Shown here piece by piece: positions 4,772 to 46,714 of a DNA stretch of 64,000 bases. Origin of the DNA: Squalus acanthias (Eukaryota); contig CM059428.1 in assembly GCA_030390025.1 (NCBI GenBank), positions 146,258,001 to 146,322,000 on the forward strand, read 5' to 3'. The translations under genes and the position numbers were made by a program. The notes under the pieces are model-generated. The model was not told the DNA's origin. It searched no databases and worked only from the letters and a program-made list of their open reading frames with translations. How positions within the stretch are numbered: position 1 is the first letter of the stretch; each line of letters starts with the position of its first letter.

Positions 4772-4885
4772 AGGAAAGGAAAAGACTTGTCTTTATATAA
4801 CACCTTTCATGTCATCAGGTGGTTTCAAAGCATTTCACAGCCAATGAAATAATTTTGAAGTGTAGTCACTGTTGTAATGTAAGGA
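4772..4885 (-). mobile_element. SINE/L2-type 3' tail fragment, interrupted by palindromic insert
   Basis: Reverse complement of the tail of the DeuSINE copy at 14650-15078 (cattggctgt...ctatataaatgcaag). Confidence 0.6.
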
Positions 4886-5121
4886 CATGATGTGGAGATG
4901 CCGGCGTTGGACTGGGGTGGACAAAAATGAGAAGTCGCACAACACCAGGTTATAGTCCAACAGATTTATTTAAAATTACAAGCTTTCGGAGCTGTCGCCC
5001 CTTCTTCAGGTAGGGTAGATTCTCTCACAGCTACCCTACCTGAAGAAGGGGCGACAGCTCCGAAAGCTTGTAATTTTAAATAAATCTGTTGGACTATAAC
5101 CTGGTGTTGTGCGACTTCTCA
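4886..5121. mobile_element. Penelope-like-element-derived palindromic insertion, copy 1
   Basis: Perfect 91-bp inverted arms (4928-5018 and 5031-5121) with a 12-nt loop, a 42-bp unpaired left extension, and a 12-bp direct repeat GTAATGTAAGGA at 4874-4885 and 5122-5133. Confidence 0.85.
5037..5072 (+). ncRNA. minimal hammerhead ribozyme motif (mirror copy on - strand in the left arm)
   Basis: TAC-CTGAAGA-A-GGGGC-GACA-GCTCC-GAAA-GCTT-GTA: CUGANGA and GAAA core, stem II, palindromic stem III (AAGCTT) and short stem I. Confidence 0.7.
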
Positions 5122-5959
5122 GTAATGTAAGGAGATCATAAGGTAGCTGTACAGTGTTTATGTGTAACCAATGAGTGTTTGGGTTATAACTCCTTTTGTC
5201 TACCCTATTAATTAGCTTATTAAGAGTAACTTCTTGAATTATTAGTAATATAATGAATGTTGATTCAGTTGCAGTATTGAAAGGGAACTTGCCGATTCTT
5301 TGGCAAGGAGATAACGATCAGTAAAGGTCTCGAAAAAGTACTTAAATAGGTGGGCTGAAAGAGGTTAATGACCATTTTAAATTTCTGCCTTTTAAAAAAA
5401 AAAGACAATTATATTGGCTTTAATTAATCAACTCGAGAAATGACTGATTAAATTATTCATTTTAGTGTGTGTCAATAACACATTACTACAGTTATTAGTA
5501 CTTGATATGACGCGGACTTCCAGAAAAATTTGTGTCGATGAAATAAAATCATCCCAATGAACTCCTAGTATTGTATAATCATTTGAAAGTAATTTCGAAG
5601 TTATATTCGTATTTTCATGTAACTGGTTTTTCTAATACATTCTGCAGTTGCAGGCTTGTAATCACTTCCGGATATCAATACATTTAATTTCTATTGTATT
5701 GCTTATTACTGCAATTGAAACTACCTAAAGATACCAAAAGATGTTCCTACCAGCAGGAATATTGGTCAAATTTAGCTCATGTACGGCGCCTCAGCTGTTT
5801 GCAACAAAAAAGTATCATATTGGCATCAGCAAAAGTATTTTTTTTTTTCTCACCATTATTATCATCTAATATCTTGAAGATGTTGACTTCTCACTGGGTA
5901 CAGTTTGATGGGTACAGGGTGCCCTCTGGTACCATGCCCAAATGTCATTTATTCATGTG

Positions 5960-6225: not shown

Positions 6226-6351
6226 TAACTTATACTGAAATAGCTTCCTTTTGGTTGTCATAAGATTGCAAATAAACAAATTAATTTGCTGGCATAGATG
6301 GTGGTTCCAAAATGTGAAGGTACTACAAAAAATACACTTGTTTCGTTTCAG

Positions 6352-6440
6352 TTTCCAGAAGGAGTTCTCTTTCGAAGACAAAGAAATTGCCAAGAAAACA
6401 AAAGATATAGACCCTAATCTACTTGCTGTACTTCCTAAAG
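6352..6440 (+). other. SVIL: SVIL upstream exon (5'UTR or coding N-terminal extension)
   Basis: Acceptor tttcgtttcAG and donor AAG|GTTAGT; 89 nt, open as xFQKEFSFEDKEIAKKTKDIDPNLLAVLPK; its phase-1 end joins in frame to the exon at 16829. Confidence 0.7.
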
Positions 6441-6856
6441 GTTAGTGACATAGTGCTTTGACGGAATTGAGTTTTTTTAACTTGGCATAAAAGCAACGAA
6501 TTCACTGGTGGACATAAGATCAACTGCCTTTGGGAGAGGGGCAGTTGATTGTGAGGTGAGCAGAGTCCCTTGAGATGGGATTGGGTAAAGTTCTGTTTGA
6601 GGGCTGCCAGATCATGAATGTTCATGGGACAGAAAAATACATCATTTATATATAAATCTTCATTCTCCATGTCCCTCCCAACTGCAGGTGATGATGATGC
6701 AGAACTCTGCGACTGAGGAAGAAATGGAAGGATTCATAACCTGAAATATACATTTGGGATAATTGTACCGTTGACGACAGAATAGCCTTTTTTTCATTGC
6801 ACATTCCCCATTCCCCACGTACCACAGGAATGTAGCCCAGTTTGATAGGTTCTGGG

Positions 6857-7854
6857 GAAACTACACACTGAGCTTGCACATGAAAATGGGACAATGAACG
6901 TTGGTACTGCTGCACTTGGGCTTCCTAATTCTGTCGTACAAAACCTCAGGAACTGTACCATTGCATCAGTAGATTTCCACCCGCACACCCCCAAAAGATT
7001 AATTCTTTGCTCCTCCTGTCACCAGATGTTTGGGACTACAGCCTCTTTATCTAATCTAACTATTTCCATAGAATTAATCCCAATTTTTGTGTTTTCTTTT
7101 AGAAATTTCACAGCAGTCTAAGGTGCTGGCATAAGCACCTCCACAAAATATACAAGGCTGTCATTTATAGGAAGGGCTTTAGGCTGTGTGATAGTATCCG
7201 TGACTAATTCTATATTCACTAAATGCCCATATAGAGAGCAAATAAAGCAGGTGAAAACAAACTAACTATCTGATATAAGGGACTAAGACACAAGTTAGAA
7301 TTCTACACTCATTACAGAGAATGTGCCCCAGGGGAACTGTGATTGCACAGTATGCCCTTTGGCATTGATCCATGTAAGTCAGCTGCAAGCTCTTATTTTA
7401 GATCAACTGCATTTGATTTTGCATTCTGGCAAAACAGTCCTTACGGCTCATCTAGCGCGTTAAAGCTAGATCTCATTTGTCTGTTTCATTTGGGTTAAGA
7501 AACTGTTTTATCTAATGCCACAGGAATATTGTTTCCACTATTTAGATGCTCTTAAATTATAACTTTTGTGCAAAGTAATTTAGGTAATTCCAGAAGTTCC
7601 TCATGGTGCAAAGACCCAAGACAAATCCTATACTGCTGCCATCTTGCAGGAAAGAAGCCTAGGAAACAGGCTAAGGATAATTTTACCCATTTCATAACTG
7701 TTTCTTGGGCATCTATAAATTTCCAGTTGTTTAGCACATGCAAGATGCAATGGTACAGTTCCTGAGGTTTTGTCCGGCAGAATTAGGAATCCCAAGTGCA
7801 GCACTACCAACGTTCATTGTCCCATTTTCATGTGCAAGCTCAGTGTGTAGTTTC
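6857..7854. repeat. 111-bp inverted repeat pair (6857-6967 / 7744-7854)
   Basis: gaaactacacactgagcttgcac...ccattgcatc and its reverse complement, with only a few mismatches and a spacer of about 775 bp. Confidence 0.9.
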
Positions 7855-23285: not shown

Positions 23286-24542
23286 ATTATATTTGTTCAT
23301 AAACATTAACATATTGGCTTTGTATCCTCAGACCTAGTTAGATTTGGAATCTGGTCATTCTTTCAAGCTTCCTAAAGGTATTCACACCAATCCTTAGTTG
23401 GCTTTCCTCCGCAATGCCTCAAATATACCAGAGCAAACTACTCCCAGGGTTTTGCTATTACTGCTTTGAAGCCACCAACTAGAAGGGAGCACAAGAATGG
23501 TCTGGGATAAAGTCAGAACGCTGTGTGAAACTGCCATTTGACGCAGTATCTGTGTATTTAATAAGTATTACCGTGACCCCCCCTCCCAGGAGTTTCAGCC
23601 TGAGGGAGCAGTTCTTAACCTGGCCTAGTCAAATGAATTTCTCTTGCCTCCTGTGGAAGCTCTGTTGTATCATTGCTTACCCTGGTATATGTTTGAGGCC
23701 TGAAAACAGGATAACTTGCTGAGATGTAGTTATCCTCTTCCCCCTCTCTCCTTTCTGAACTCCTGCCACAGAAAGTGTGTATATGTGCTTGCTTGGTAAG
23801 CACACTGAAATGTGACTGACAGCAGTTCCTGAGGAAAATAGGTTGTTAAAGCTATTGCACTAGTACAGATTTCCAGAGGAGCTGCAAACTGGCAAGTGCT
23901 ACTTTAAAGGAATTTAATGGGAACATAATCAAAGCAGAGCATTGCGTTCTGCCATTGTTGATGAGTAATTTCTGGTTTTTTTATTATGATTATTACTGGG
24001 TACTGTTTTTATAGAAATGCACCATATTATTTAAATGTCCTGCTTCACCCCTTCCCATGTATATATGCACATTCTTCACATTGGAGATGGTTTGTAAAGT
24101 CTAAATTTTGCCGAACACATCTTTAGCTAAAAGTATGTGGAATTGTCAGTGTACTTTCTAATTGGAAATAAGAGGGAATGTGATTTTTTTGGTGTCCCTC
24201 ATTCCCCGACCGTTCCAAAATACTCTAATGACACCTGGCAGGAATTGTGCTCATGATCTTGGTGTAGCGAATCACGTAATCCTTTGTTCTACCACATTTT
24301 TCACTGCTGTCCCCTTTTGGGTGCTGCCATCCACAGTGGTGCTTAATGCTTTCACAGGTGCAGAATATATTTAGATTTTGTTTAGACATTCCACCTCACG
24401 TAGGTTTATTTCAACATTTATTTTCTTCTTGTTTTGTTTATATCACTTGTTGTTACAGCATTAGAACCCATTACAGGGCCTTCTAAAGGTATAACTGCCA
24501 GCTCAGATGGTAGTTGCTGATCAATAATGTATTTAAAATAAT

Positions 24543-24716
24543 AACAGAAAATGCTGGAAACACTCAGCAGGTCAGGCAGCATCTGTGGAAAGAAGAATGT
24601 TAATGTTTTAGGTCTTGACCCTTGGTCAGGATCCTACCTTCCACAGATGCTGCCTGACCTGCTGAGTGTTTCCAGCATTTTCTGTTTATATTTAAGTTTT
24701 CCAGCATCTGCAGTAT
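24543..24716. mobile_element. Penelope-derived palindrome (second family), 48-bp perfect arms 24543-24590 / 24639-24686
   Basis: acagaaaatgctggaaacactcagcaggtcaggcagcatctgtggaa and its reverse complement; the same arm sequence occurs at 46722-46765. Confidence 0.8.
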
Positions 24717-27014: not shown

Positions 27015-29185
27015 GTACTGTGGAATGTGATTTTCTTTTGTAATTTTCAGATCATTCCTAACTACACATTTTAGTCATTGATGTGTGTTTTCCATATTGC
27101 TCATCAGATCATTGTGTGTTCCCAGTGTTGGCCAGCATTTTATGTTGGTTTGACATCTTTCCTGGTAGAAAGATCTATCTCGAAACTTCACATACTAAAC
27201 TCATTGTTCATTTTCATGTATCTCCATAATTGATTTGTTGGGTTTTGGGTGTGCATGACTAATCCTTATCCGGACCTCAGACAACACAAAAATGTGGTTT
27301 AGTTCCCAGTCACATTTTAACCATTCATCAAAAATCCTCCCTTGCCATGTTTTGTGTGATTATTGCTGTAAAGTCCATAGTGCTCTTCCAATGCCAGCAT
27401 AAACCAAGGAGTTGGTCACATGATGGATGGAGAAGCAGCTCAATCAATAGTTTAATATGCATTTACTAAACTTTAAAATACAAATCTAGATTGAATTGAT
27501 GCTGGATTTGTTTTTATTACTATACTGAGATGTAAATAATGGAATTGGCTGGATTACTGTTAGCTAATCTGACATTATTTTGGTCAAGTATGGGGACACT
27601 GATTACTTCATAGAGATAGAAAAGACAAACTGGGAGAGGTATAGGCATCTACTGTAGACCACCAGGTCAGGAGGATGGATTGGACCAAGCACATTGTAGT
27701 CATATAAGGGAAGTGTGTACAGGAACAGATGCAGTTGTTAGGGGTGGTGTCAACTTACCAGACATAGATTACAAAATCTATAAAGTGTGCTACAGGAATG
27801 AACACGTGATCCTAGATACAATGTTCGATAGTTAAATTAAATAATGAGTCATGGATCACACTTGGGCAGGGGTGCTATTGGGGCCAATATTAAGTTACAA
27901 CCAGGAGATGGTAAAACAGATCAGAATCGGAACACGTCCTCAACGGTGGCCACTATATGGTGGAGTTTCATTCAAGTTTAGAAAGGCAGATTGAGGGGCG
28001 TGCTGAGGAAGTGGTGCTGGACTGTACTGTTGAAGGGGAAAAGCAATGAAGAAGGCTAACGAGCAAAAAACCAAGGTAGGCAAAATGGAAGTAATGTGGA
28101 GAATAAGGGCAACAGGATAGTATTTCTAAAGTATAAAGCTACAGGTAGCATAGTGCACTTAGATAAATATAATAAACAAGGTAATGGAGGTTGTGGAACT
28201 GGTCAGAAGAGCTAAATTATAAAATAAGATTAGAATATCAGAGGATTTTTAAAAGAAATGTCGAGCATTTCTAGAAATATATTTGCAGCAAGCAGGTTAG
28301 AAAAGGAAGCGGTGGAGCCATCGAAAGATCCCAAAGCTGACATGATATCAAGTGACCAAAGACAGCAAATATACTAAATGAATTCTTCTGTGTTCATAGA
28401 AGACTACGGAACACTTCCCAGTGTAAAAGGCAAATTTCAGAGAATGGTGGTGGGGACGGTGAAAGTGCTGAAGGATTTAGAAATTTCAGATAAGGCGGTC
28501 ACTGACAGGCTAGGGACTAAAGGCAAGGTGCAAGATCCAATGGACTTCATGCAAGAGGATTTAAAGAATTGGTTAGCAAAATCAGTTGCTTCTTTGCAAT
28601 CTTTAGGGAATCATTAGAAACAGAAGTGGTGCCCAAGGATTGGAAAGTAGCTAATAAAACAGCCATCTTTAAAAAGCAGAGGTCGTTCAGGAAACTACAG
28701 GCTAGTGAGCTTAACAGCCAATGTGGGTAAAGCCTTAGAATAATTGCTGAAAGTGGCTAATGAAATACCTAGATAGGTATGTCATAGAAGAGGGAGTTAA
28801 TATAGATTTATGACAGACCACCTTTGACAACAGAAATTCTGTGGATATGATTTCAGTAAGTCTTTGAATTTTGCGCTGCATGAGATTAGTTAACAAGGTA
28901 GGAAGGCAAGCTTCTGAGGTGGATTGAAAAATGACCAAACCAGGGAAAGCAAAGGGTGGCTTTGAGTGGAGTTGGATTGCTATAGCATTGGGTCACTGGA
29001 GGTACCACAGCGATCTATGCTGGAGCTGGTGCTGTTTCCAGTGTATTTAAATGATTTGGATCTCGAGCCAGAAACAAAGTTATCTGCAGATGACTCTGCT
29101 TTTCTGGTGGGGGTGGGGGTAGGGGGTGGTTCAAGCAATAGCATCAGGTAAATCAAATACAAAGGGCTCTGGATAGGTTGGGATG

Positions 29186-29410
29186 ATGCGGAGATGCTGG
29201 TGTTGGACTGGGGTGGACAAAAGTGAGAAGTCGCACAACACCAGGTTATAGTCCAACAGTTTTATTTGAAATCACAAGCTTTCGGAGCGCTGCTCCTTCG
29301 TCAGGTGAAGGAGCCTGACCTTCACCTGACGAAGGAGCAGCAGCTCCGAAAGCTTGTGATTTCAAATAAAACTGTTGGACTATAACCTGGTGTTGTGCGA
29401 CTTCTCACTT
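29186..29410. mobile_element. Penelope-like-element-derived palindromic insertion, copy 2
   Basis: Arms 29221-29311 and 29319-29410 (one 1-nt indel) with a 7-nt loop; same left extension as copy 1; 12-bp direct repeat TAGGTTGGGATG at 29174-29185 and 29411-29422. Confidence 0.85.
29322..29359 (+). ncRNA. minimal hammerhead ribozyme motif (mirror copy on - strand)
   Basis: TCAC-CTGACGA-A-GGAGC-AGCA-GCTCC-GAAA-GCTT-GTGA. Confidence 0.75.
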
Positions 29411-29778
29411 TAGGTTGGGATGGTAGGCTGATGAATTGCACTTGGCACTTAATGTGGACAAATGTAAGCTGATGGACTAGAGAAGGGAAAGTAAACAGTG
29501 AGAATATAAATTAATTGGTGTAGGCTACAAGACATGACACAGGAGAGGAATCTGGGGGTAATTGTGGATAGCTTGTGTAAAGCAGCAGCATAGTGTACAT
29601 TAGCAGTAAGGAATTCCTACTCCAGTCTCTGGATATACAACACGCATCCTAAGAGGCGATGAGTGTACCAGGGACTGGTGTTGCCAGACCTGGATTTCTG
29701 TGTACAATTATGGTCACCGTACTACAGTAAGGATGGTCAAGCATTGGAGCCTGAAAAGAGCAACCAAGCTGACACCTA

Positions 29779-45555: not shown

Positions 45556-46714
45556 GCAAGTATTGGCTCTTGTTCTTACCTGTACTATGTACCTGTACTT
45601 GCATTACAAACGAATGTGAGATTAGCAAGACTAGAAGCATTTATTTTATACACTGGCATTGAAGGATGTGAATTCTTAATTGTATACGTAAATATTACTT
45701 AAATTGGAATGTGTGGGGGGGGGGGGAAATAGACGTGCATGTTGTACACTGCATTTATACTATGCATTGTATATCTCCAATTGCCAGTTTAGAAAATAAT
45801 TGTGTCAGGATATTTATCTATTGTTTAGTACACTTGAGCCTGGATTTTCCAATTGCCATAATTTTAGTGATGATGGTAACTCATTTATTTTAAAAGGTTT
45901 ATCGATGGCATCAAAATACTGCTTAATCGGAAAATCCAGACTTGAGTCTCACTGTGGCTGTTTTGCTTTTGAGCATTTAAAACACTTAGTTGCCAAATTC
46001 CTCAGACCAGTTGCTGTTGAAGAGTAATTTCACTACAATCACTAGAATTTTGTTTTCTTGGTTTATAGTAACGCAAGAAAAATGATCATTACGCTAATTA
46101 AGGAATAGATATGACAGGACTCAGTTAGAAATTGTTTCTAACCATTGCTATGTAATTCAACAAAGAAAATCTGAGCTGAGGCTTGTCGAACCAAAGTTTT
46201 TCACCATGACTGTTTATTTTGATAAGCAACAAAGATTTTGTTTCATTGTTATGACTTTAATATTAAAAAAACATAAGGCTGAATCTTAACTCCTTAAAAA
46301 CAAAACGGGTGGGTTGGGATCGGGTCAGAGGTTAAAATGCAAAAAATCTGAAACAGGAACCCAACCCGCCCACTGCTGGTTTTAACGGAGGCGGAACGAG
46401 GATGGGTGACCAATTCGCTCGCGGGAGCAGGTTGGTCATTTTAAATATTATAATGAGACTGCCTACCTTTATTTTAACAGTCATTCTATTTTGAACTAAT
46501 TTCATCCGGGTTTCCCAGGTTTCGGGAAACCCGGCAGGTGCAAGGAGGCAGGGATCTGTCTGCTGCCCCCCACACACGATCTCCCTCACTCCGCCACTAC
46601 ACCTACGTGCTCTCATAGGCTGCAGCCTTGTGAAGCAGGCTTCCCGCCCAAAAGGCCTCTAGCCTATCAATCAGGCTGCCTGTGGGAAGGAACCCAACAG
46701 AATTTTTTTTTAAA

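Follow-up and report, generated by a model that had tools for sequence, protein, structure and literature searches.

A palindromic insert in Squalus acanthias is probably a one-off truncated and inverted end of an autonomous Penelope-like element, with both target ends likely primed on the same RNA

Complex insertions of Penelope-like elements (PLEs) are described as combining an inverted, 5'-truncated pLTR, a tail of 30-40 bp on one side only and a target site duplication (TSD) (PMC3846280 for Pen2a_Av of Adineta vaga; PMC2377424 for Penelope of D. virilis; PMC8557442), and the inverted ends and the one-sided tail have tentatively been ascribed to endonuclease cleavage or resolution (PMC8557442). 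The Neptune clade of PLEs is defined by a zinc-finger-like CX2-5CxxC linker between reverse transcriptase (RT) and GIY-YIG (PMC8557442). In vitro, the protein encoded by PAc (Poseidon of Anolis carolinensis) cuts both target strands and elongates each of them, synthesis beginning at two sites that delimit the tail. Its targets are rich in AT, and the hammerhead is dispensable for insertion; the main text of that report draws no link from double-strand extension to the inverted genomic structure (PMC11167929). Metazoan PLE pLTR hammerheads are minimal and of the dimer type, show weak cleavage in vitro and are already known as opposite-strand motifs 100-700 bp apart (PMC4209133; for hammerhead background, PMC6765202). 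Within the literature on Penelope-like integration screened by title and abstract, with most subscription papers outside its scope, double priming was not proposed for PLEs.

The window analysed here comprises 64,000 nucleotides of Squalus acanthias (GenBank assembly GCA_030390025.1, contig CM059428.1, positions 146,258,001 to 146,322,000 of the forward strand) and contains an insert of this kind, copy 1, at 4874..5133. Copy 1 is a single head-to-head palindrome of 236 bp, and the exact 12-bp direct repeat at its borders (4874..4885 and 5122..5133, + strand) shows it to be a true retro-insertion. It consists of a 42-bp extension (4886-4927) and a perfect 91-bp inverted repeat (4928-5018 and 5031-5121); insert, TSD, repeat and extension of the original prediction were all recovered exactly. 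Counting from window base 4886 as q1 into the element, copy 1 corresponds letter for letter to q1-133 of a natural long copy of its parent, followed by q145-43 inverted. Arm A (4886..5018, - strand; parent 1-133) comprises the tail and the 3' part of the pLTR and is 100% identical at 21 other loci among the best 40 of 453 candidates from a search of the 3.7-Gb genome itself. Arm B (5019..5121, + strand; parent 145 to 43, inverted) is without tail and includes an apparent 12-nt loop (5019-5030), which is not a separate loop but parent sequence 134-145 reversed. The extension (4886..4927, - strand) represents the last 42 nt of the 5' leader including the start codon of the parent ORF (ATG at 4888-4886, - strand), at which it ends, and was identified as the known Penelope tail. 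Its outer end is the putative priming site 1, and a U5 tract (4927-4923, - strand) the putative priming site 2. The inverted truncated copy, the tail at one end and the TSD are the same as in published insertions of endonuclease-bearing PLEs; compared with those, the direct copy in copy 1 is cut to 133 nt with only two pLTR ends left, the tail has 42 nt instead of 30-40 bp and ends at the ATG, and the TSD fits exactly 12 nt.

A related insert, copy 2 (29174..29422, unstranded), has its own 12-bp TSD at 29174 and 29411; predicted as a second copy of the same element, it belongs to another subfamily with a junction different from that of copy 1 and is an independent stump. Two further inverted repeats were seen in the window, one with 63-nt arms 32 nt apart (24536-24693), related to a repeat at 46708 and of a different family, the other of 111 nt (6857-6967 and 7744-7854; 96% complementary, 776 nt apart).

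By its sequence, copy 1 derives from the 3' end of a young autonomous PLE, Neptune-type by its linker motif, and the match to this end confirmed the predicted Penelope origin. The parent ORF of 892 aa was intact in four of the 39 loci fetched around the RT region (98-100% alike) and is a single frame with RT motifs, a CX4CX2C linker at residue 753 and GIY-YIG-type motifs at 791-881, RT preceding GIY-YIG as in endonuclease-bearing PLEs. Pfam scored RVT_1 (E=2e-8) as the only domain, GIY-YIG being read from the motifs; PF01541, which we take to be the GIY-YIG domain, is present in 33 of the 120 listed homologues of the ORF. The single ORF, the RT motifs, the linker ahead of the endonuclease and the GIY-YIG-type motifs are the same as in Neptune, a likeness at the level of motifs, and the linker is common to Neptune and Nematis (PMC8557442). 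The closest named relatives among the homologues listed are uncharacterised shark proteins with 79-94% identity. An annotated shark epsin-2 isoform (P0019) contains a 94%-identical stretch of the parent ORF, which may reflect exonisation or a faulty annotation. Direct repeats spaced by about 3.03 kb (L094, L102, L104, L128) correspond to the partial-tandem organisation of pLTRs, and such partial tandems and a TATA-like box in the pLTR are also features of published endonuclease-bearing PLEs. The family is large, as a 26-mer present in the arms of the two window copies led to 97,107 exact matches genome-wide (48,587 + 48,520) and its reversed sequence, used as control, to none. For a second subfamily, matches spaced 3,138 bp were found in one array. 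Head-to-tail full-length arrays of this subfamily with the 3,138-bp spacing lie at C2:211213590-211223298 (L220-L223), C3:129328243-129331677 and C1:223721177-223725971 and are candidate source loci.

The predicted minimal hammerhead motif of the dimer type could be recognised on each strand of copy 1, with core, stem II and palindromic stem III (CUGAAGA-A-stem II (5 bp)-GAAA-GC-UU) and a stem I of only 3 bp. The putative type I motif of arm A spans 4977..5012 (- strand; C3 at 5009, predicted cut at 4980/4979) and that of arm B 5037..5072 (+ strand; C3 at 5040, predicted cut at 5069/5070), and cleavage would be expected after ...GAAAGCUU. Type I topology, an extra nucleotide 9.1, G10.1-C11.1, palindromic 15.2-16.2 and a short helix I are the same as in PLE pLTR hammerheads, helix I having 3 bp in copy 1 and 4-5 bp in PMC4209133. 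The suggested covariance-model check was negative, as an Rfam scan of copy 1 revealed no hammerhead model at E<=5 and matched two generic miRNA hairpin models only, below their gathering scores; the assignment therefore rests on the motif and its variation among relatives. A complete core is present in 74 of 104 arms, counted as related copies and not as independent events, with G10.1-C11.1 in 74/74, all four bases at N7, U (63) or C (11) at H17, and C-G (54), U-A (15), U-G (2) or no pairing (3) at pair 3 of stem I. The core, G10.1-C11.1, a free N7, H17 other than G, a palindromic stem III and covarying stems are those of a minimal type I hammerhead, and in the parent the motif appears to be functionally conserved. 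Five of the 74 complete cores form a U4C subfamily (e.g. C1:906661, 1072552, 2004953). In copy 1, each strand of the palindrome was computed to fold to one hairpin of about -180 kcal/mol, with a probability of the G10.1-C11.1 pair of ~6e-23 compared to 0.78 in a single arm. As the motif lies in the second half on both strands, behind its own complement, the hairpin is predicted to mask both hammerheads and to keep them inactive, and the original idea of a ribozyme placed in a transcript in either orientation is doubtful, since the motif would be fully paired with its earlier-made complement.

The outer ends were analysed in three samples. The first 100 matches of the arm 26-mer gave a position sample of 72 insertions, of which 32 are inverted with a TSD of at least 8 bp and 40, non-inverted or unresolved, were excluded from the tail count. 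One tailed and one tail-less arm were observed in 32/32, the longer arm ending from about q104 to q3489. The young-family set comprised 61 loci, 35 of them inverted and 33 with a TSD of at least 9 bp; in 33/33 one arm starts at about q-4 to 10 and the other at q36-46, with the tailed arm preselected by the similarity search with copy 1 and the partner arm free. Together with nine of the ten recurrent-junction loci, the pairing of a tailed with a tail-less arm is found in 74 of 75 inverted insertions. An exception to the one-tail rule is L237, a perfect palindrome with both arms without tail and a 12-bp TSD. Apparent TSD lengths range from 12 to 15 with a mean of 12.82, compared to 12.80 in a simulation where a constant 12-nt stagger is lengthened by chance matches, and the 33 TSDs are AT-rich (72.5% AT). 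The overlap between TSD and template totals 4.27 nt versus 1.67 nt under a null model allowing for chance overlap of either kind, and the observed value was reached in 0 of 1000 null sets. The target matches the bases around the ATG at site 1 and the U tract at site 2; the TSD ends of copy 1 have no exact target/template overlap at either end. At L032, L037 and L039 (also L010, L014 and L190), another repeat family was noticed to have been hit independently at one identical base, with a target of the ...TCTTGAATATACT... type. Further recurrent insertion targets occur in the C1 sample, and a site preference within host LINE-like repeats is suggested.

From genomic sequences alone, we infer double priming on one RNA as the simplest model. 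The endonuclease would cut both strands 12 nt apart and generate two 3' overhangs, one of which would anneal through a few nucleotides in the region of the start codon (site 1), while the second would use the U tract, located about 40 nt further upstream (site 2). Each primer would then be extended towards the 5' end of the RNA, probably with strand displacement and with a stop point of its own, and the two cDNA ends would be joined, mostly via a microhomology of 1-5 nt, and filled in, giving the order TSD-tail-arm-inverted arm-TSD. In twin priming of L1, both target strands use a single RNA as template and produce an inversion with microhomology at the junction, the two segments not overlapping. 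In contrast, both primers would here be placed at the 3' end, so that one stretch is copied by each of them, which leads to a palindrome. Extension of both strands, two start sites bounding the tail and AT-rich targets are the same for PAc, which differs in that synthesis begins 111-118 nt within the ORF, at a position described as lacking homology to the target (PMC11167929), whereas the putative sites of the shark family, the ATG and a point ~40 nt upstream of it, share short microhomology with the target.

The two arms of an insertion usually derive from the same template lineage. At shared polymorphic sites, the arms of 35 insertions show 15 differences in 21,767 nt (0.07%), compared to 1.15% between loci, and carry the same minor allele in both arms at 139 sites, 11 of them private. 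Two random RNAs as templates were rejected as the rule, since arms rarely differ at polymorphic sites and ribozyme haplotypes are identical in 17/20 arm pairs of the position sample, compared to ~5% at random. Two identical transcripts of one source locus would look the same as a single RNA molecule, and differences between the arms could have been erased by gene conversion. A correlation of arm lengths in the position sample (p=0.0006) was not relied on, as it is driven by the short class and used ungapped estimates of short arms, which are too low for several loci. That both target ends prime on two separate RNAs held by a dimeric protein is unlikely: the arms rarely differ though dozens of variants coexist, so both RNAs would need one source locus, and independent RNAs alone leave the pairing of one tail with one tail-less end unexplained. 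It would agree with the dimer predicted in PMC11167929, would not need strand displacement and would fit the locus without tail on either arm as well as the unlike arms of window copy 2, whose loop II sequences are separated by a single 1-nt indel and match two different common variants; several loci selected for likeness to copy 1 also have unlike arms, fitting two templates.

Very unlikely is an inversion of truncated parent copies by self-priming (fold-back) of one cDNA or of an antisense template with later asymmetric central loss. It would also give the same alleles on both arms, has been proposed as self-priming for rotifer Penelopes (PMC3846280) and would suit the seven of 28 clean junctions at which the arms end no more than 50 nt apart. 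Among these 28, whose long loci had been chosen for the RT region, the arm without tail exceeds its partner in length in 16 and by more than 100 nt in 11. Such a length would not be possible by fold-back of a single cDNA without large one-sided deletions, which argues that both arms were copied from RNA; a cDNA begun at site 1 cannot yield a longer second arm, and one begun at site 2 is without tail and so offers no template for a tailed second arm. Target/template microhomology at both outer ends also speaks against fold-back. An overlap of 1-5 nt was detected at 23/28 clean junctions. Copy 1 is probably a one-off truncated inverted end of an autonomous shark PLE, with both target ends likely primed on the same RNA, and the counts favour double priming on one RNA. 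For PLEs in general, we lean towards two-ended priming on one RNA, with a 12-nt staggered cut, two sites 40 nt apart, the same stretch copied twice and many short palindromes as footprints of transcription start.

The original prediction had further regarded the palindrome as a non-autonomous element, complete in itself and mobilised as one piece. A 23-mer across the central junction of copy 1 occurs once in the 3.7-Gb genome, and the 21 loci identical over q1-133 extend past q133 to varying lengths, the longer ones into the RT ORF on the opposite strand. Nineteen loci of the best 40 of 453 candidates, copy 1 included, resemble the whole insert; no common centre is seen among them apart from a perfect fold at the self-complementary AGCT. 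This is the commonest junction seen, at ten loci with four parent haplotypes, different starts and different flanks, and must therefore have arisen repeatedly. Across the family, arm lengths range from about 80 to over 3,000 bases with continuous inner ends. One central junction with the tail on opposite arms was observed at two loci of the position sample, C1:2938175 and C1:3042029 (L164, L166). In the copies compared, outer boundaries and TSDs are common while arm lengths and junctions vary, and the boundaries are common because they are the two start sites of the parent. For the palindrome, neither many copies with the same boundaries and internal structure nor head-to-tail tandem monomers, as in a non-autonomous unit, were found. 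Animal non-LTR retrozymes are likewise short, derived from PLE pLTRs, hammerhead-bearing and present in a chondrichthyan, but form head-to-tail repeats of a fixed monomer, whereas copy 1 is head-to-head with a unique junction (bioRxiv 10.64898/2026.07.22.740005). For copy 1, a palindromic mini-element transcribed and mobilised as a 236-nt unit is largely refuted and extremely improbable, since frequent short palindromes, common outer boundaries and a junction recurring at ten loci are outweighed by the single occurrence of its own junction, the self-complementary 4-mer at the recurrent one on four haplotypes, the continuous variation of inner ends to more than 3 kb, the two loci with one junction and opposite tails, and a tail-less arm end varying over positions 36-46 and following the parent sequence.

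Many of the palindromes are short like copy 1; in the position sample, 17 of the 32 with inverted arms measure at most 300 nt. In 17 short palindromes, the longer arm retains 7-21 nt 5' of the hammerhead C3 in 12 cases and 37 nt in one, and ends inside the core in four; among the 40 remaining arms, 25 extend beyond 80 nt, 8 stop at 6-17 nt and 7 within the core. Copy 1 retains 9 and 21 nt. In 87 of 89 parent haplotypes, the distance between C3 and a TATA-like box is 30-39 nt; these haplotypes were chosen for such a box within 10-50 nt, so that only the spacing is informative. The usual offset from TATA to start is 30 nt, and the predicted start site therefore falls where the stumps end. Short stumps may be run-off copies of the 5' leader of the element, a reading we favour slightly and the weakest step of the explanation; RT stalling just past the ribozyme is a possible cause as well. 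A sharp 5' end at the putative start site was not seen in 60 loci chosen by ORF start, the ends of which are broad. Cleavage by the hammerhead was rejected as setting the 5' end of full-length copies, with 0/60 ORF-start loci ending at the predicted cut and 3/60 near it, two of these already in the earlier full-unit set; in that set 4/9 copies end within 6 nt of the predicted cut and 2/9 at it, which was not upheld in the 60 loci.

The host gene is plausibly SVIL, as originally predicted: a compatible villin-headpiece match was located ~75 kb beyond the window, on the + strand. A gelsolin search gave no match near the window. An exon-like frame (…EFSFEDKEIAKKTKDIDPNLLAVLPK…) was noticed at 6239-6445 (+ strand), 1.1 kb downstream of copy 1. 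The locus itself is ordinary, one of tens of thousands of stumps, and its layout of inverted pLTR, one-sided tail and TSD is already known; what the copies add is a mechanistic lead. As the family is young and huge, the origin of the inverted ends and the one-sided tail of PLEs becomes testable and, if the model is true, two-ended priming alone would account for the tail, its one-sidedness and the inverted pLTR. The effect of such inserts on the host would be intronic double-stranded RNA rather than active ribozymes.
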